Positions 9,172 to 56,827 of a stretch of DNA of 64,000 bases are shown in pieces; the first letter of the stretch is position 1, and each line of letters begins with the position of its first letter. This stretch comes from Candidatus Berkelbacteria bacterium (GTDB lineage Bacteria > Patescibacteriota > UBA1384 > UBA12157): assembly GCA_037127955.1 (NCBI GenBank), contig JBAXXI010000003.1, forward strand, positions 7,771 through 71,770, read 5' to 3'. Below the pieces are notes generated by a model. It saw only the letters and a list, made by a program, of their open reading frames with translations, did not search any database and was not told the DNA's origin. A program made the position numbers and the translations under genes.

Positions 9172-10272
9172 TTAAACATTTTTCCCTCTTTTCCTCTTTC
9201 TCCATTCTAATACAATTAAGCCAATGGCTAAAGTCCCCATGACGATTAATAGCCAAACTGTTGCTTGAACTTTACCAGCGGTCTGAGAAAAAATCGCCAC
9301 CGCCCCAAAAATGGCCGAAATCAAATACAAAGTTAAAACGGCTTGTCGTTGGGTTAAACCAACATCAATTAATCGATGGTGAAGATGAAATTTATCGGCT
9401 TTAAAAGGAGAATTCCCTGACATAATTCGTCGCAAAGCCACCCATACCACATCGAGCACTGGAATACCTAAAACCAAAAAAGCAGTAGCAACTTTACCAC
9501 CGGAAATAACTGCTAACACGCCCAATAAATAGCCTAAAAACATACTCCCAGAGTCACCCATAAAGATTTTCGCTGGGTTAAAATTCCAAGGAATAAAACC
9601 TAGTACCGAACCAGCAAAAATCAAAGATAAAAGCGCGGCCGCCGGTTGACCTAAAGACAAGCTTAAAAAGAAAATGCTCACCGCCGCAATCACAGCTATA
9701 CCGCCCGCCAAACCATCGAGACCATCAAGAAAATTCAAAGTATTAATCATTAAAACAATCCAAAATACAGTTAATAAATTAGACCAGACGGTAAAATGAA
9801 AAGGTATGCCAAATAAACTATAATTCCAAATCAAATTACCTAAATCGATATGTAAACCGGCCGGCAACCTGATATAACCAATATTTAAACCAAAACTCAC
9901 TACAATAGTCGCCGCTACAATATGCCAAAAAAGCTTCCACCAAGGTTTGACCCCACTTACGTCGTCAACAATACCAACCACCAGCAAAACCACGGCACCA
10001 AAAAGCACTCCAATCAATTTCTGATCAAAAATTAAAATTTTAGCACTACCAAAATCCAATCGATTAGCGGCCAAAGCATAACCAATAGTAGTTAATAAAA
10101 AGGCTAAAACAATCGCCAACCCACCAAGTCGAGGCGTGGCTTTTTCATGAATCTTGCGGCCGCCGGGCTCGTCAAAAATACCTAATTTTTCTGCCAAAAC
10201 CTTAACCGAATAAGTTAGTCCGCCGGTCATTAACGCGGCAATGACCAAAGGCGCAATATAATTTTGAATCAT
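9172..10272 (-). CDS. polyprenyl-phosphate sugar-1-phosphate transferase, MraY/WecA (GT4 glycosyltransferase family 4)
   Basis: About 10 TM helices. Motifs VGIVDDVSG, NFLDGLDGLAGG, IFMGDSGSMFLGY and HLHHRL. Confidence 0.8.
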   Translation of the reverse strand: MIQNYIAPLVIAALMTGGLTYSVKVLAEKLGIFDEPGGRKIHEKATPRLGGLAIVLAFLLTTIGYALAANRLDFGSAKILIFDQKLIGVLFGAVVLLVVGIVDDVSGVKPWWKLFWHIVAATIVVSFGLNIGYIRLPAGLHIDLGNLIWNYSLFGIPFHFTVWSNLLTVFWIVLMINTLNFLDGLDGLAGGIAVIAAVSIFFLSLSLGQPAAALLSLIFAGSVLGFIPWNFNPAKIFMGDSGSMFLGYLLGVLAVISGGKVATAFLVLGIPVLDVVWVALRRIMSGNSPFKADKFHLHHRLIDVGLTQRQAVLTLYLISAIFGAVAIFSQTAGKVQATVWLLIVMGTLAIGLIVLEWRKRKRGKNV

Positions 10273-27170: not shown

Positions 27171-28799
<1,629 letters not shown>

Positions 28800-28903: not shown

Positions 28904-29200
28904 TTATTGAATAATCGCGATAATATCTTCTTGTTTTAAAACAATCACTTTTTGACCATCAACTTTTACCTCATCACCAGCATATTCGCGGTAAAGCACA
29001 AAATCATCAACCTTAACCACCATTGGTAATAATTTACCATCTTCAAATTTACCTTCACCCACGACCAGAACCTTACCTTTATGGGATTTTTCTTTAGCCG
29101 TATCTGGAATAATGATACCAGACTTGGTCACAGATTCCTGTTCGAGCGGCAAAATTACCACTCTGTCACTCAATGGTTTGATAATCAATTTAACCTCCAT
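28904..29200 (-). CDS. groS: co-chaperonin GroES
   Basis: IKPLSDRVVILPLEQESVTKSGIIIPDTAKEK. 98 aa. Confidence 0.95.
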   Translation of the reverse strand: MEVKLIIKPLSDRVVILPLEQESVTKSGIIIPDTAKEKSHKGKVLVVGEGKFEDGKLLPMVVKVDDFVLYREYAGDEVKVDGQKVIVLKQEDIIAIIQ

Positions 29201-29354
29201 TTACGTTAAAAAATTGCAAATAAAAAAACAATCCTCACTCCTTTTTAAAGTAAAAATTGTTCAAATTGTTAGGAGAAAAGCTAAGGGGGATAAGCTTTCT
29301 CCTAACAATCTTATTTTAGCAAAACCCACCTGATTGTCAACTATTTCAAGTATC

Positions 29355-29380
29355 AAAAAAGACCCGAGCGGGTCTTTTTT
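29355..29380. terminator. bidirectional terminator AAAAAAGACCCG-AGC-GGGTCTTTTTT
   Basis: Palindromic hairpin with A/T flanks. One of a family of three similar terminators in this window. Confidence 0.7.
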
Positions 29381-29401
29381 GCTTAACTTATCTAAACTAT
29401 T

Positions 29402-30217
29402 CTATAAAGGTAAAGTGGCGGTTAAAACTTTACTATCCCCTGGATTGTATTTGACCGCATATTTCACATCAGAGGTATTACCGTCTAAGATATCCTTTGT
29501 TGTAGTAACATATCCATCGTAATATGCAACACTTCTCTTGGCATAGTTAAAAATACTAGCAGTTAAAGTATTTTGATCAACCGCACCAGTCACTGTATAA
29601 GCTACATACCAATCAGATCGAATCGGTGTATCGACACCAACCTTCAAAGTTGCTGTATGACCATCATCAATAACTTTAATCTCATTAACACAAGCAGCTT
29701 TAGCTTTGGTAATCACATCAGCATCAGCAACAGCAAATTCACCTTTAGTGTTAGTTGTACCAGTAAATTCTAACGGGAAATAAGTATCAGATTCTTTAGC
29801 TCCACTATAGCTGTAAGTATAGGTACAAGCAGCATAAACAGTCGCTTTAACCGCCACATTGGCCGAAGCAACTCCAGCTTTTGTTACCTTCATTGTCACT
29901 TGACCGGCAACTGGAGTAGTTGTGGTGGTAGTATTTGTATTAGTTGTGGCTGTAGTCGTAGCCGATGTCTTGCTTGGATTAGCCTGATTATCCATAAAAT
30001 TTATAACTCTGGTAAACTGAGTGTTTGAGTGGCCTTGCATAAACTTTTTCCAAGTAGCCATGTTTTGAACACAGTTTTTCCACTGTGTACCCTTAACGCC
30101 AGCACAATAATCTTGGCTAAAAGCATCGGCTGAGGCTTGCCAATAGTAGTAACCGATTCCACCTCCGATTATTACAATCGCCGCAATAATCAATCCCACG
30201 AGTAACTTTTTGTTCAT
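29402..30217 (-). CDS. membrane-anchored secreted protein, paralog A (Thr-rich linker plus beta-rich C-terminal domain)
   Basis: GGAGG SD. N-terminal TM helix. The 62-aa Cys-containing module GYYYWQASADAFSQDYCAGVKGTQWKNCVQNM...NQANPSK is identical to paralog B. The C-terminal domain is divergent. Confidence 0.65.
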   Translation of the reverse strand: MNKKLLVGLIIAAIVIIGGGIGYYYWQASADAFSQDYCAGVKGTQWKNCVQNMATWKKFMQGHSNTQFTRVINFMDNQANPSKTSATTTATTNTNTTTTTTPVAGQVTMKVTKAGVASANVAVKATVYAACTYTYSYSGAKESDTYFPLEFTGTTNTKGEFAVADADVITKAKAACVNEIKVIDDGHTATLKVGVDTPIRSDWYVAYTVTGAVDQNTLTASIFNYAKRSVAYYDGYVTTTKDILDGNTSDVKYAVKYNPGDSKVLTATLPL

Positions 30218-30316
30218 TTAAACCTCCTCATTTTTGAGTTTTTGTTTATTAATCTATACTTGTATTAATCATAAAACTATTATAAAAATAATGCAATATT
30301 TTCTTCAATAAGCACC

Positions 30317-30343
30317 AAAAAGACCCCGGAGGGGGTCTTTTTT
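30317..30343. terminator. bidirectional terminator AAAAAGACCCC-GGA-GGGGGTCTTTTTT
   Basis: Same hairpin family as 29355 and 33770. Confidence 0.7.
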
Positions 30344-30369
30344 ATATAACTTAAATCTTATTTAATTAG

Positions 30370-31032
30370 TTAGAGATTTGGTTGAGCGCCAACAGGTACA
30401 CTAACAGTGACACTACCACCAGCCGTGGTTAAGGTTACCGGGTAAGAACCAACTACTAATCTTAAAGCACTGATTTTGCAAGTAACCTTAGTATCAGACC
30501 AAGAAACTACTTGAAGATCACCTGTATTTAACTTGAGTGTTGATGTTCCTTGGGTCGCACCAAAACCTGTACCATTAAGAGTCAAAACTGATTCAGCATT
30601 TTCTCCAGAAGTTAATGCTGGTAACAAAGATGAACTGGTTAAAACTGGCTTAGCCACAGCTGGACAAGCTTTATAAACACAACCAGAAACAGCCGTATCA
30701 TAACCAACCAAAGTACCATCCGGACAAGTTTTCATCACGGCTGGACAAGCACTGCTATTAGACGAACTTCCCGAACTAGAACCCTTGCTTGGATTAGCCT
30801 GATTATCCATAAAATTTATAACTCTGGTAAACTGAGTGTTTGAGTGGCCTTGCATAAACTTTTTCCAAGTAGCCATGTTTTGAACACAGTTTTTCCACTG
30901 TGTACCCTTAACGCCAGCACAATAATCTTGGCTAAAAGCATCGGCTGAGGCTTGCCAATAGTAGTAACCTAAACCGCCACCAATTACCAAGACGGCACCA
31001 ATAATGAGTCCGATAAGCCATTTTCTGTTCAT
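30370..31032 (-). CDS. membrane-anchored secreted protein, paralog B (Ser-rich linker, Cys pairs, IPT/TIG-like C-terminal domain)
   Basis: The start was chosen at 31032 (MNRKWLIGL) because AAAGGTG SD precedes it; the ORF-track start is 31050. It shares the N-terminal module with paralog A. LTLNGTGFG resembles an IPT/TIG motif. Confidence 0.6.
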   Translation of the reverse strand: MNRKWLIGLIIGAVLVIGGGLGYYYWQASADAFSQDYCAGVKGTQWKNCVQNMATWKKFMQGHSNTQFTRVINFMDNQANPSKGSSSGSSSNSSACPAVMKTCPDGTLVGYDTAVSGCVYKACPAVAKPVLTSSSLLPALTSGENAESVLTLNGTGFGATQGTSTLKLNTGDLQVVSWSDTKVTCKISALRLVVGSYPVTLTTAGGSVTVSVPVGAQPNL

Positions 31033-31105
31033 AATTCCCACACCTTTCAAGTTTTATTTATAGATATATTAAGTATAAAACTATCAAAATAATTAAGCAA
31101 TAATC

Positions 31106-31753
31106 CTAAATTTTATCAGGGTGAAACCTTAATTCTTTACTAGATATAAAAATTTGACCTGATTTTGCCCTTATCGTTCTTTGATCTTTTAGAATTCGAT
31201 TTTTTTGATACTGACCTAATACTCGCTCTCCCAAGTCGCTAAAAAATAAATCAAAAATTAATTCATTAATTTTACGAAAAATAAAAATAAACTTTGAACA
31301 AGTGTTTGCTAGTACACTTATTCTTCCCAAATCTTGGAAATCATAACCAAAATCTTGAATCCACTGATTTTTCTGTTTAAAAACTTTAAAAATATCATTT
31401 TCTTGCCAAAGTAACTTTGTAAAACTATGATTTCTGGCTAATTGAGTCGTTTTGATTGATAATTCCAACTTGTCAGTGGTTTGATACAAATTCAGGCAAA
31501 TTCGACCAGCAATCTTGTTCTCATACCTTTTAAGCCCAAAGATCATCATTATTAAAATACTAAAAAAACGACAAGTCCAAATCCGACCTGGTTTGGCAAT
31601 AATAATCAAGTCAATATCGGACCGTTCACTCGCCTCACCTCTAGCCAATGAACCATTTAAACCGATCATCCTGATAAACGGCATAAATTGAAGCAAGAAA
31701 CTAGCTAATCTGGCCCGATGCCAATATTTTGTTTGAATCTCAATCTTTTTCAC
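31106..31753 (-). CDS. Pol-beta-superfamily nucleotidyltransferase (stand-alone)
   Basis: GLNGSLARGEASERSDIDLIII contains the GS and DxD motifs. Confidence 0.7.
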   Translation of the reverse strand: MKKIEIQTKYWHRARLASFLLQFMPFIRMIGLNGSLARGEASERSDIDLIIIAKPGRIWTCRFFSILIMMIFGLKRYENKIAGRICLNLYQTTDKLELSIKTTQLARNHSFTKLLWQENDIFKVFKQKNQWIQDFGYDFQDLGRISVLANTCSKFIFIFRKINELIFDLFFSDLGERVLGQYQKNRILKDQRTIRAKSGQIFISSKELRFHPDKI

Positions 31754-31858: not shown

Positions 31859-32323
31859 ATGAATCAACCAGTGGAAAATACCCCTTCTACCCCGCAAACT
31901 CAAAATCAACCAGAAAAACCAATTATCAAAAATCCACGCTTGGTTAAAACTATTATTATTGCTGTTATTTGTGTGGTTATTCTTGTCTTGACCTCAATCA
32001 TTGTCTTAAACCAGATCAAACAGAAAAACACTCAAACTCAGGTTAAAAATGGCAAAACCTTAGTTCAATTAGTTTTTAACTTAAGAAACGAAATCGATAC
32101 TTTTTACCAAAAAAATCAATCATATAAAAGTTGGCAGGCCGACAGTCAAATTTTAGCTCAGGCCACAAGCCTTGGATCAACTATTAACGTGGTCAGACCT
32201 GATTTCCAACATTACATGTTTTATGCTTTTATCCCGGCAGATCAAAAGTATTTCTGTGTCGACAACACGCAATTTGCTGGCGAAATCAATAAAATCTCGG
32301 TCAACCAAACTAAATGCCAATAA
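31859..32323 (+). CDS. small type-II-membrane / pilin-like secreted protein, paralog 1
   Basis: N-terminal TM helix, then a domain that ends in a Cys...Cys pair (CVDNTQFAGEINKISVNQTKCQ). It is paralogous to 33318-33755. Confidence 0.55.
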   Translation: MNQPVENTPSTPQTQNQPEKPIIKNPRLVKTIIIAVICVVILVLTSIIVLNQIKQKNTQTQVKNGKTLVQLVFNLRNEIDTFYQKNQSYKSWQADSQILAQATSLGSTINVVRPDFQHYMFYAFIPADQKYFCVDNTQFAGEINKISVNQTKCQ

Positions 32324-33317: not shown

Positions 33318-33755
33318 GTGGAAGAAAAAGAGATCGAAAAAACCGAACCAAACAAGAAAAAACACTTAAAAATTAGCTGGTGGTTAATAGTTGTGGCCAT
33401 CTTGGCTTTCGGTGGTGCATTTTACTGTGTTTCACCAATCATCAAAAGTAAACAAACTTTAAATAAAACTCAGCCGGACACAAAAGAAGAAATTAATGTT
33501 AAACAAAAACTTTCTTCCTTACGCGGCGATATTGACCGTTATTTCGAAGCCAATAAAACTTATGAAGGTTGGACACCGAATGCCGGCGATCTAGCTAAGG
33601 TCAAGGCTGCTGGCTCAGAAATTAAAACTAAACTTAGCAAAGATGGCTATATGATTTACGCCAAAATGCCTAACTCGAAACTTATCTTCTGTATGGATAA
33701 AACTTTCACTGGCGAAATGAATACGATCAGCTCGTCACAAAAAACTTGTAAATAA
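33318..33755 (+). CDS. small type-II-membrane / pilin-like secreted protein, paralog 2
   Basis: Same architecture as 31859-32323 (TM helix, ...Y.GW..., CMDKTFTGEMNTISSSQKTCK). Confidence 0.55.
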   Translation: MEEKEIEKTEPNKKKHLKISWWLIVVAILAFGGAFYCVSPIIKSKQTLNKTQPDTKEEINVKQKLSSLRGDIDRYFEANKTYEGWTPNAGDLAKVKAAGSEIKTKLSKDGYMIYAKMPNSKLIFCMDKTFTGEMNTISSSQKTCK

Positions 33756-54456: not shown

Positions 54457-55200
54457 ATGCCCTTTATCTATCTCTTGGTTCTGGGAACATCTATCTGGGT
54501 TTTAGTTGATGGCTACAGGTACGAAATGAATAAAAACGAAAGTCCAATACTTTGGTTTATTGGTTGTCTATTACTTTGGATTATCGCTTTCCCTTGGTAC
54601 TTAGCTAAGAGAAATCATTATAAACTAAAAGATAATTCCGAAAAGGGCAAAGATTCAAAAGGTAGTTCCAAAATAGAATTAGGAAATCCGATAAAAACTC
54701 CTAATTTTCTTGCGATTGGCTGTGGTGGTCTAATACTGCTTATTATAATTGTTTCGATGATTAACAGTGGATTACAGGGAGCTAACAAAAAAGCTCAAGA
54801 TTTGAGTAAACAAAACTCTAACAACTCAACCAATACAAATCCGACACCCTCTAATAATAGCTCGTCTGCGCCACAAGTAAGTAATATCGCTGTTAATGGA
54901 GATGAAGCATATCTAAAGCTCCCAAATATAGATGATACTGGTTCTGCCATTCTATTAGCAACTGATAAAAAATATCTTGACGAGGTAACCAAAACTTTGA
55001 TAAACAAAGATTATATGGGAATACTTGAGTTAGCAGAACAAAACAAAGCATTTGCTGTACATAATGGTAGCAAAGTTCTCGTTATTGATGGCACTATGTT
55101 TGCTCGAAGAGTAAGAATTTTGCAAGGGACACAACCAGTTGATAGTGATAAGGTGGGCTTATCTGGCTGGGTTCCAATGGAGTGGGTAGTAAAAAAATAA
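54457..55200 (+). CDS. hypothetical membrane protein with Asn/Ser-rich linker and a C-terminal globular domain
   Basis: AAGGAAAGGAG SD. 2-3 TM helices. Confidence 0.55.
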   Translation: MPFIYLLVLGTSIWVLVDGYRYEMNKNESPILWFIGCLLLWIIAFPWYLAKRNHYKLKDNSEKGKDSKGSSKIELGNPIKTPNFLAIGCGGLILLIIIVSMINSGLQGANKKAQDLSKQNSNNSTNTNPTPSNNSSSAPQVSNIAVNGDEAYLKLPNIDDTGSAILLATDKKYLDEVTKTLINKDYMGILELAEQNKAFAVHNGSKVLVIDGTMFARRVRILQGTQPVDSDKVGLSGWVPMEWVVKK

Positions 55201-55693: not shown

Positions 55694-55783
55694 GGAAGGG
55701 TCGCATAGTGGTCTAGTGCAGTGGTCTTGAAAACCGCCAGGCCTGCAAGGGTCTCGTGGGTCCGAATCCCACCCCTTCCGCCA
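55694..55783 (+). tRNA. tRNA-Ser (anticodon TGA), type II with long variable arm
   Basis: Acceptor GGAAGGG/CCCTTCC, anticodon loop CTTGAAA, a variable-arm hairpin, T-arm GTGGG-TCCGAAT-CCCAC and an encoded CCA. 90 nt. Confidence 0.8.
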
Positions 55784-55807
55784 TCTTTTTTAATAATATG
55801 AATCGAT

Positions 55808-56056
55808 ATGAATAATTGGTCAGTTTATATTTTGCAATGCTCAGATAACACCTATTATACTGGTATTACGACCGATATTGAAAAGCGATTAATCGCCCAT
55901 CAAACCGGCAAAGGCGCTAAATATACTGCTGGTCGATTACCTGTTAAAATCGTGTATTTCAAAGATAATCTAACCGAAAGTCAGGCTCGCAAAGAAGAAT
56001 TTAGAATCAAAAGTTTATCAAGATCTGATAAGATAAAACTGATATTTGATAAATAA
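55808..56056 (+). CDS. GIY-YIG nuclease-domain protein (YhbQ/UPF0213-like)
   Basis: WSVYILQCSDNTYYTGITTDIEKRLIAHQTG matches the GIY-YIG core (Y..Y.G, R, H). Confidence 0.8.
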   Translation: MNNWSVYILQCSDNTYYTGITTDIEKRLIAHQTGKGAKYTAGRLPVKIVYFKDNLTESQARKEEFRIKSLSRSDKIKLIFDK

Positions 56057-56109
56057 AAATGGTTTCCAAACCATTGATAGACAACTTAACAATTTGATAT
56101 AATTAATAT

Positions 56110-56724
56110 ATGAAATTCTATTCGAATGATATAGTCAATTTGGCTAGAGAAAAAAGAATTAAAGGTAATTCTATTAGAAAAATTTCCAAAGAATTACAAA
56201 TTTCAGATACTACTATTGGCAGATGGGTAAAAGATATAAAATCAGATTCTTTATCTTATAACAAAAATAGATTAAAAAATGAAGATGAGAAGCAGAAATA
56301 TAATCATCTTTTTAAAAACTTAAAAATTACAGCAAAAAATGCAAAATTATTTTGTAGTTTACTATATTGGTGCGAAGGATCGAAATACCCTTCTAGTAAC
56401 TGTGTCACTTTTGTAAATAGCGATTTCAAGTTAGTGAAAACATTCTTTCAATTATTGAAACAAGTCTTCGAAATAGATAACAATAAAGTTAGAATACACC
56501 TGCAAATACATGCAACTCACAACTTTGAAGAAGTAAGAAAATTCTGGAGTAAGTTACTTGCTATACCAGAAGAACAGTTTTACAAACCGACTATCACCAA
56601 TCCTGCCCAAAAAATGAAAAGATTAAATTACAAGGGCACTTGTACACTAAAATACTTTGACTCAAAAATATTATTACAGATTACTGGCATATTCGAAGAA
56701 TTTTCCAATAAAAATTTATCATAA
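56110..56724 (+). CDS. HTH-domain protein with possible LAGLIDADG-like endonuclease region
   Basis: N-terminal HTH (GNSIRKISKELQISDTTIGRWVKD). LLYWCEGSKYP weakly resembles a LAGLIDADG motif. Confidence 0.45.
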   Translation: MKFYSNDIVNLAREKRIKGNSIRKISKELQISDTTIGRWVKDIKSDSLSYNKNRLKNEDEKQKYNHLFKNLKITAKNAKLFCSLLYWCEGSKYPSSNCVTFVNSDFKLVKTFFQLLKQVFEIDNNKVRIHLQIHATHNFEEVRKFWSKLLAIPEEQFYKPTITNPAQKMKRLNYKGTCTLKYFDSKILLQITGIFEEFSNKNLS

Positions 56725-56738
56725 CTAAAAACGCATTC

Positions 56739-56827
56739 GGAGAGATCGCATAGTTGGTCTAGTGCGCCTCACTGCTAACGAGGTATACCGCAAGGTATCC
56801 AGGGTTCGAATCCCTGTCTCTCCGCCA
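56739..56827 (+). tRNA. tRNA-Ser (anticodon GCT), type II
   Basis: Acceptor GGAGAGA/TCTCTCC, anticodon loop CTGCTAA, variable-arm hairpin TATACC-GCAA-GGTAT, T-arm CAGGG-TTCGAAT-CCCTG and CCA. 89 nt. Confidence 0.8.

Follow-up and report, generated by a model that had tools for sequence, protein, structure and literature searches.

Recent gene conversion as the probable source of a perfect 186-nt repeat shared by two tandem genes for predicted exported proteins in Candidatus Berkelbacteria

Two adjacent genes, here called A and B, lie in tandem and in the same orientation within a 64-kb window of a Candidatus Berkelbacteria metagenome-assembled genome (MAG; assembly GCA_037127955.1, contig JBAXXI010000003.1), the window being the whole stretch of 64,000 nucleotides (nt) that was analysed. 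The bacterium is uncultivated and ultra-small. Each gene encodes a predicted signal or anchor, a short module containing two cysteines, a low-complexity linker and a C-terminal part of its own, and the two copies of the module are 815 nt apart. The positions of these parts are as follows.

29402..30217, minus strand: gene A, 271 amino acids (aa), with signal or anchor, module, Thr-rich linker and uncharacterised beta-rich C-terminal domain
30370..31032, minus strand: gene B, 220 aa from the ATG at 31032, with signal or anchor, module, Ser-rich linker, four-Cys segment and TIG domain
30155..30217, minus strand: codons 1-21 of gene A, MNKK plus hydrophobic segment, diverged from B
30970..31032, minus strand: codons 1-21 of gene B, MNRK plus hydrophobic segment, from the codon comparison
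29969..30154, minus strand: codons 22-83 of gene A, forming its module copy and the candidate conversion tract (perfect 186-nt repeat)
30784..30969, minus strand: module copy in gene B, codons 22-83, perfect 186-nt repeat

Both products are on record from a Candidatus Berkelbacteria MAG, that of gene A exactly as MEI6040008.1 (hypothetical protein WCP93_01510) and that of gene B, from a 77.9-kb contig, as MEI6040009.1 (IPT/TIG domain-containing protein). The ATG at 31032 as the start of gene B is backed by the family alignment and by the NCBI protein P0153. A TTG start at 31050, proposed by a mechanical open reading frame (ORF) call, is supported by neither the family alignment nor the NCBI annotation.

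Direct string comparison of the two genes gave a maximal exact match of 186 nt (29969-30154 and 30784-30969). An initial annotation of this DNA had claimed a 185-bp identity between 29970-30154 and 30785-30969, which this comparison confirmed and extended by one base. Codons 22-83 of A and B are thus identical at 186/186 nt and differ in 0/62 codons, so that the 62-aa Cys-containing module is shared exactly, as had been claimed, and contains two cysteines. On the 5' side, codons 1-21 match at only 40/63 nt (63%), with differences in 16 codons, and among the 13 codons that specify the same residue in both genes 8 carry a synonymous change; the claim of diverged signal or transmembrane regions therefore stands. 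A repeat search placed the tract within a wider similarity of 249 nt at 91% that reaches both start codons, and detected an additional 50 nt at 76% further upstream (30249-30298 versus 31053-31102). On the 3' side in gene orientation, 30-nt blocks match at 4-13/30 positions, which is chance level, and from codon 84 onward the genes are unrelated. The C-terminal parts gave a BLASTP E of 0.48, in agreement with the different C-termini described initially: one protein is Thr-rich and beta-rich, and the other is Ser-rich with an IPT/TIG-like domain (PF01833, 26.5 bits against a Pfam gathering cut-off of 20.9, which it passes). A 14-mer scan of the whole 64-kb window revealed no third copy of the repeat; an extra 14-mer match at 56205 was rejected as a chance match in an unrelated helix-turn-helix (HTH) ORF.

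At the 63% identity of the neighbouring codons, the probability of 186 straight matches is ~0.63^186, or roughly 1e-37, and at the 45-60% rate of synonymous change seen in comparable pairs, the probability of zero synonymous changes in 62 codons is <1e-15. Chance cannot be the source of the identity. Several other causes were considered and rejected. A structured RNA or antisense gene was set aside, as no Rfam family was found in 29000-31300 and the plus strand ORFs are only 42-47 aa long and merely clip the ends of the repeat. A diversity-generating retroelement (DGR) was excluded, since the window has no ORF of more than 150 aa with a YxDD motif and the two copies agree at their adenines too. 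The GC content of genes A and B (0.35-0.43) is unremarkable for the region, and a foreign origin was dismissed on this ordinary base composition.

Relatives of the module genes occupy a conserved genomic position. The module genes directly adjoin a nucleotidyltransferase-like gene in every locus with enough flanking sequence (L005, L007, L009 and L015), and groES-groEL come next wherever the downstream flank is present (L005, L007, L009/L010 and the P0026 contig, the last of which displays the groES side only). The number of module genes in this slot varies among the loci.

One-gene slot: L005 (uncultured Ca. Berkelbacteria CAIRFN010000004.1, crystallin-like); L009/L010 (P0048)
Two-gene slot: the window; the P0026 contig (84 aa and 280 aa)
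Three-gene slot: L007, with a 273-aa A-like gene, a 97-aa module-only gene and a 224-aa gene with a B-like Cys segment
Three-gene slot: L015, with genes of 80 aa and 77 aa and a long P0120-like gene

GroEL of the window is ~82-83% identical to GroEL of these genomes, which indicates that the copy number and the C-terminal domains in the slot turn over at roughly genus or family depth. The tandem paralogs within these arrays are well diverged. The three genes of L007 share 60-63% nt identity in the module with a longest common run of 11-14 nt; in L015, again with three genes, the longest common run is at most 17 nt, and the modules of the L003/L008 pair are 62% identical in nt. Overall, the tandem paralogs in L007, L015 and L003/L008 show 60-63% module nt identity and 45-50% synonymous codon differences. 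The module of the window and that of L005 are 73% identical in aa, with 19 of 45 same-residue codons synonymously changed, where GroEL is 83% identical.

A further pair of genes was observed in the JGI dataset Ga0194057. P0036 (L013, 1467-2357) and P0048 (L010, 610-1821) are 86% identical in nt over ~230 nt from the gene start, in an alignment that extends ~35 nt upstream of the start codon and includes a ~70-nt stretch with one mismatch. Further upstream regions and the C-terminal parts are unrelated in DNA. We regard this pair as a second mosaic of the N-terminal module, older in appearance and involving genes of different loci or strains.

Four further contigs cover the A-B locus. L001 (NCBI GCA_964547745.1, a 228-kb contig) is 100% identical to the window outside a 100-N scaffold gap at 9280-9379, which replaces 30839-30914 within the module copy of gene B and leaves 55 nt of the repeat on each side. 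Owing to the gap, gene B is annotated in that assembly as a truncated 146-aa protein (P0155). L002 (JGI 3300021349), also 100% identical, reaches from gene B across the intergenic region into copy A, where it breaks off after exactly 127 nt. L011 (ENA ERZ4223250, coverage 1.25) corresponds to 31175-30274 of the window at 99.6% identity; its four mismatches, two of them in the first nine codons of B and two ahead of the start codon, are all upstream of the module. L004 (ENA ERZ27300127 k141_502409, a 744-nt MEGAHIT k141 contig) joins 30277-29969 to 30969-30349 via the repeat and encodes P0002, in which the signal and module of A are followed by the C-terminus of B at 100% identity. P0002 is the cluster representative for gene B in protein collections. 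The L004/P0002 chimera is probably an assembly wrong turn through the collapsed repeat.

The stretch from the 3' end of B through the intergenic region to the 5' end of A is contiguous in L001 and L002, and thus the tandem arrangement is real; L011 stops 57 nt short of the start codon of A. The junctions of each copy with its own flanks recur across independent assemblies, and no variation in the module was found among the four other contigs, which come from the same population. All of these contigs stem from graph assembly of short reads, where the repeat forms one shared edge and the centre of both copies is not independently read for each copy. The gap, the break and the chimera, at k of 55, 127 and 141, are the behaviour expected of an exact repeat longer than k, and argue for a genuine repeat with exact identity over ~141 nt or more. 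In practical terms, a 186-nt exact repeat suffices to break, gap or chimerise the locus in public assemblies.

Based on these results, we consider it likely that the 186-nt identity is a recent gene-conversion tract between the old tandem paralogs A and B. The run of identity is longer than the divergence of its flank predicts (186/186 versus 40/63 nt; 0/62 versus 8/13 synonymous changes), and a substitution-free tract with a diverged homologous 5' flank is the signature of recent non-reciprocal transfer. The paralogs are older than the tract, as arrays of two to three genes at 60-63% identity occur in relatives and as A and B are homologous but diverged in their signal and upstream regions. 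Gene conversion is favoured because elsewhere tandem paralogs reach a module identity of only 60-63%. Since these paralogs are as diverged from one another as are the signal regions of A and B, the tandem duplication is old; and since both tandem paralogs and interspecies modules diverge in DNA, protein constraint does not account for the DNA identity of the two copies. Thus gene conversion, one half of the initial proposal of gene conversion or cassette exchange, is retained as the best explanation of the tract, and no evidence was obtained in support of the other half, an ongoing exchange of cassettes.

In the proposed event, non-reciprocal recombination would have overwritten the module of one gene with that of the other, and neither the promoter and signal region, which is diverged, nor the 3' part, which is unrelated, would have been affected. 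The tract ends fall in GYYYW (5') and ANPSK (3'), two motifs conserved across the family, and microhomology at these sites would permit recombination between the copies, which lie 815 nt from each other, or a switch of template. Candidate starting points include RecA-dependent conversion, template switching, or continuous homogenisation since the duplication. The tract, its sharp borders, the divergence of its flanks and of tandem paralogs elsewhere, the family architecture and the slot were observed directly; the mechanism and the direction of the conversion are inferred. With regard to function, the module would supply a common means of export, anchoring or docking, and the C-terminal domains may provide different binding specificities at the surface.

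Several points weigh against this reading. Small differences between the copies could have been collapsed, the repeat being one edge of the assembly graph. Homologous recombination at the presumed identity of only ~60% is inefficient, which makes it hard to see how a conversion would have started, and continuous homogenisation or template switching are alternatives that are not separable from conversion here. Searches of genome and metagenome contigs turned up no near relative that carries A as well as B orthologs and could serve to date the event or set its direction. Finally, export, cleavage and surface location are predicted from features of the sequences only.

An assembly artefact is one alternative to gene conversion: the two modules might be merely similar, and graph simplification or polishing might have collapsed them to one consensus. 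The 100-N gap inside copy B of L001 with only 55 nt of repeat on each side, the stop of L002 127 nt into copy A, the chimeric path of L004 through the repeat, and the lack of any contig with read-independent sequence for the middle of both copies are all consistent with such a collapse. Nevertheless, breakage at k of 55, 127 and 141 needs exact shared k-mers, so the reads themselves support an exact repeat of at least ~141 nt; the same sequence was obtained by three different assemblers from different samples; and the low-coverage contig L011 has single-nucleotide polymorphisms in the flank of B and none in the module. We therefore judge an artefact to be highly improbable. A recent partial duplication or domain fusion, in which illegitimate recombination pasted the module between a diverged signal and a foreign C-terminal domain, would fit the 3' border of identity, which is also the end of all homology, and the extensive domain shuffling in the family; low identity between pre-existing paralogs would in addition have hindered homologous conversion. 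Such an event, however, requires two precise in-frame illegitimate junctions. Furthermore, diverged homology persists through the signal region and the 50 nt upstream (76%), as if both genes already had the module, and arrays of two to three complete module genes are the norm in relatives. Pasting of the module is thus unlikely.

The initial annotation had also suggested possible antigenic or functional diversification. In a reading of this kind, the module would be a recombination handle at which crossovers swap, delete or amplify C-terminal domains, and the resulting hybrid surface proteins in the population would give antigenic or host-range variation, programmed or at high frequency. The junction in L004/P0002, with the upstream region and signal of A, the module, and the C-terminus of B, is as expected from unequal crossing-over or from an excised circle. 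The slot in related genomes holds differing C-terminal domains and copy numbers, and P0036 and P0048 combine similar gene starts with unrelated flanks. Against this, just two copies are present, in direct orientation and as complete genes, each with its own GC-rich hairpin and T-run; the 64-kb window contains these two full-length copies in place of silent donor cassettes and one expression site, and no promoterless cassettes and no recombinase or invertase gene were found among the neighbours. A deletion hybrid with the N-terminal part of B and the C-terminal part of A is absent from a 15-billion-protein collection, in which the 90% cluster of A has one member. The only recombinant variant on record, the L004 contig, is equally well explained, and exactly so, as a wrong turn taken at the collapsed repeat by a fragmented assembly of probably low coverage, and constitutes weak evidence. 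Two copies in the window and invariance of the four contigs were the outcome that the initial annotation had itself named as telling against its proposal, and the part of the claim that concerns antigenic variation therefore fails; the chimeric L004 and the turnover of C-terminal domains in the slot between species remain as two weak points in favour of diversification. We consider a programmed or high-frequency variation system very unlikely. A related and more specific proposal, to which we would give a little more room as a doubtful speculation, is that the module is a dedicated handle in host recognition by an episymbiont. The protein would dock its binding domains on a common surface partner in Berkelbacteria, the homogenised DNA would let C-terminal domains be swapped, amplified or deleted in the array upstream of groESL and between strains, L004 would be a real recombinant, and the domain-variable slot of one to three genes would be its long-term trace.

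The module defines a family of proteins with a common architecture. An exhaustive HMMER search with the product of gene B returned, besides hundreds of multi-TIG proteins that match its TIG region, a small set that matches only residues 1 to ~90 (the HMMER N-terminal-only matches P0022, P0025, P0026, P0036, P0048, P0100, P0102, P0107, P0113, P0120 and P0139), and a search with a profile brought in proteins of 73-101 aa that consist of the module alone. The family N-terminus reads M-[NS]-K-K followed by ~20 hydrophobic residues. An A-S-A-D motif is nearly invariant in the 14 aligned members and fits the -3/-1 rule of signal peptidase I. The module that follows is ~55 aa long and contains two invariant cysteines 11 residues apart as well as a conserved N and F, and is itself followed by a Thr/Ser/Pro-rich low-complexity linker. 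The C-termini, where present interchangeable domains of beta-sandwich type, are diverse: a beta domain like that of A occurs in P0026 (E=1e-8 versus A) and P0102, beta/gamma-crystallin or Inhibitor_I36-like domains in P0048, P0036 and the L005 gene, and Flg_new_2 (InlB B-repeat-like) in P0139. P0107 and gene 3 of L007 end in regions that have no Pfam match and resemble each other in sequence, Ig-like domains are among those of the relatives, and some members have no C-terminal domain at all. One entry, P0025 (132 aa), ends in ...SLIHISEPTRPY, which looks to us like a translated sequencing adapter, and the entry is presumably truncated artefactually.

The predicted export of these proteins would proceed via a Sec-type signal or anchor. 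The hydrophobic segment has a Kyte-Doolittle peak of 3.4 and is followed by Q-A-S-A|D; AlphaFold2 (AF2) draws one continuous helix across this site, at low confidence. Judging from its motifs, the initial description of the module as membrane-proximal is uncertain, for A-S-A|D resembles a signal-peptidase site and the module would then start the released mature protein. The N-terminal semi-tryptic peptide predicted after cleavage at ASA would be DAFSQDYCAGVK. The module is predicted, again at low confidence, to be helical, with two helices in the full-length AF2 model (predicted local distance difference test, pLDDT, 50-60) and three in the module-only model (mean 61.5). Comparison of the module with Pfam, NCBIfam and a PDB sequence profile gave sub-threshold noise only, and a Foldseek search of its model against PDB gave nothing below E=4.6. 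Known classes of exported protein with which the N-terminus might be confused were also considered. A type IV pilin or pseudopilin was rejected, as there is no class III signal (G then F/M, with Glu at +5) in A, in B or in the family alignment, and a PDB pilin match (E=0.13) covers the hydrophobic segment only. A bacterial lipoprotein was rejected likewise, the first Cys being residue 38, well past ASAD, with no lipobox.

Additional searches addressed the distribution of the family. A profile search of genome and metagenome contigs with the close-relative alignment A1 found nothing, and a further alignment, A3, recovered one Berkelbacteria genome locus (L005) and two metagenome loci besides two false leads. 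Among the latter, L006 (Vibrio) matches in the hydrophobic segment only and L014 encodes a DUF305-like protein. A word-index protein search with the 85-aa N-terminus missed even identical proteins and is uninformative on the size of the family. The literature found on Berkelbacteria, on gene conversion in Patescibacteria and on surface proteins of Candidate Phyla Radiation (CPR) bacteria contains no description of the family, which we therefore regard as undescribed. The family is apparently restricted to the Berkelbacteria lineage.

The remaining features of the locus comprise the C-terminal domains, the intergenic elements and the bordering genes.

29405..29905, minus strand: beta-rich C-terminal domain of gene A, ~aa 105-271, family unassigned (AF2; homologs P0026 and P0102)
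30415..30633, minus strand: IPT/TIG domain of gene B, aa 134-206 (PF01833, E=6.5e-6)
30664..30747, minus strand: four-Cys segment of gene B, aa 96-123, ACPAVMKTCPDG...GCVYKACP, conserved in gene 3 of L007
30317..30342, minus strand: terminator-like hairpin 3' of gene B, in the B-A intergenic region (consensus scan; repeat family D2)
29355..29380, minus strand: GC-rich hairpin plus T-run 3' of gene A, resembling the terminator of B (repeat families D2 and I7)
30279..30308, minus strand: promoter-like site upstream of gene A, TTGAAG-18-TATAAT (consensus match only)
31106..31753, minus strand: nucleotidyltransferase-domain gene at the upstream border (PF01909, 26.2 bits)
28904..29200, minus strand: groES at the downstream border (Cpn10)
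27171-28781: groEL, after groES (Cpn60)

The AF2 model of protein A has beta strands in the C-terminal region with pLDDT 70-83 over ~aa 110-190 and a whole-model value of 55.7. Gene A has no match in Pfam or NCBIfam, and a Foldseek comparison of its model with PDB yielded nothing better than E=0.03. The hairpin at 29355-29380 was found from repeats and by reading the sequence, and was not flagged by the terminator consensus scan. The promoter-like site of A falls within the 50-nt stretch that has its counterpart, at 76% identity, upstream of B (31053-31102).

Elsewhere in the window, two paralogous small membrane-anchored proteins of 154 and 145 aa (31859-32323 and 33318-33755, both plus strand) flank trpS. 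They are 30% identical (BLASTP E=4e-18), each has a C-terminal Cys pair, neither is in Pfam, and the pair is kept at the same positions in L005 (2036-2476 and 3488-3952). An Rfam LOOT RNA (RF03000; 54246-54378, plus strand; 66.6 bits versus a gathering cut-off of 46.4) lies upstream of a 247-aa membrane protein ORF (54457-55200). An 82-aa GIY-YIG ORF (55808-56056; PF01541 at 54 bits) and a 204-aa ORF with sub-threshold HTH matches (56110-56724) are bracketed by tRNA genes at 55694-55780 and 56739-56824, and this segment (55694-56824) may be a small mobile or homing-type insertion. In L005, genes for a reverse transcriptase (78.5 bits to RVT_1) and a bAvd-like protein (52 bits), both DGR components, lie at 266-1652, at the contig end and ~3 kb from the module gene of that contig. 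They have no counterpart in the window, and no template repeat/variable repeat pair of 40 nt or more was found within the 15 kb of L005 examined.

CPR bacteria, including Berkelbacteria, are thought to live attached to other microbes, and to our knowledge almost nothing is known of their surface proteins. The locus defines an undescribed, apparently lineage-restricted family of modular proteins, predicted to be exported, that has a fixed genomic address and binding-type domains which vary by genome. It also provides, in all likelihood, a clear case of gene conversion between two genes of one very small genome. We found no literature on gene conversion in Berkelbacteria. The event itself is real but fairly ordinary, a solid and unsurprising instance of concerted evolution of a known kind in a new protein family. 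Should the module indeed act as a recombination handle, the locus would become a candidate determinant of host range.

The arrangement of A and B invites comparison with several known systems. In polymorphic toxin loci such as Rhs and CdiA, a conserved N-terminal part is combined with displaceable C-terminal domains, and tandem alternative copies can recombine via the conserved sequence. A and B are similar in their conserved N-terminal region, variable C-terminal domains and tandem copies. They differ in having no immunity genes and no orphan promoterless C-terminal cassettes, and the locus was rejected as a polymorphic toxin locus, since the C-termini are TIG, crystallin-like, Flg_new_2, Ig-like or unknown beta domains and not toxins, and the neighbours are groES and the nucleotidyltransferase-domain gene. 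The cassette systems of antigenic variation, namely Neisseria pilE/pilS, Borrelia vlsE and the Mycoplasma surface lipoproteins, rely on one expression site and many silent promoterless cassettes, or on site-specific invertases. The locus resembles them in that a conserved 5' or N-terminal part is joined to variable downstream parts and recombination would proceed via shared sequence. Unlike these systems, it consists of two complete genes of the expressed type, with no silent copies, no neighbouring recombinase and no variation in the available contigs.

The SLH-domain proteins, the CWB2 proteins of Clostridioides difficile and the choline-binding proteins each fuse one anchoring module to varied functional domains. 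In the same way, the Berkelbacteria family has one module common to many paralogs and joined by linkers to diverse domains. The Berkelbacteria module differs in that it matches nothing in Pfam, NCBIfam, PDB profiles or Foldseek, and in being short, helical, N-terminal and two-Cys and in occurring also as stand-alone proteins of 73-101 aa. These families are the most likely functional analogy, in which the anchoring role of the module is putative.

With regard to mechanism, RecA-dependent conversion among the paralogous adhesin and outer-membrane genes babA/babB and sabA/sabB/hopQ of Helicobacter pylori gives rise to identical tracts and chimeric genes (PMC3960876). As proposed for A and B, intragenomic non-reciprocal recombination takes place there between paralogous surface-protein genes and other parts of the genes stay different. 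The H. pylori paralogs are dispersed and have conserved 5' and 3' ends around a variable middle, and their conversion has been observed experimentally and alters adhesion (PMC3960876). In contrast, A and B are in tandem, have only the N-terminal 186-nt module in common, are unrelated to Hop/Bab, and have not been observed to switch. With these differences in mind, the bab/sab genes of H. pylori appear to be the closest documented mechanistic analogue of the tandem genes described here.

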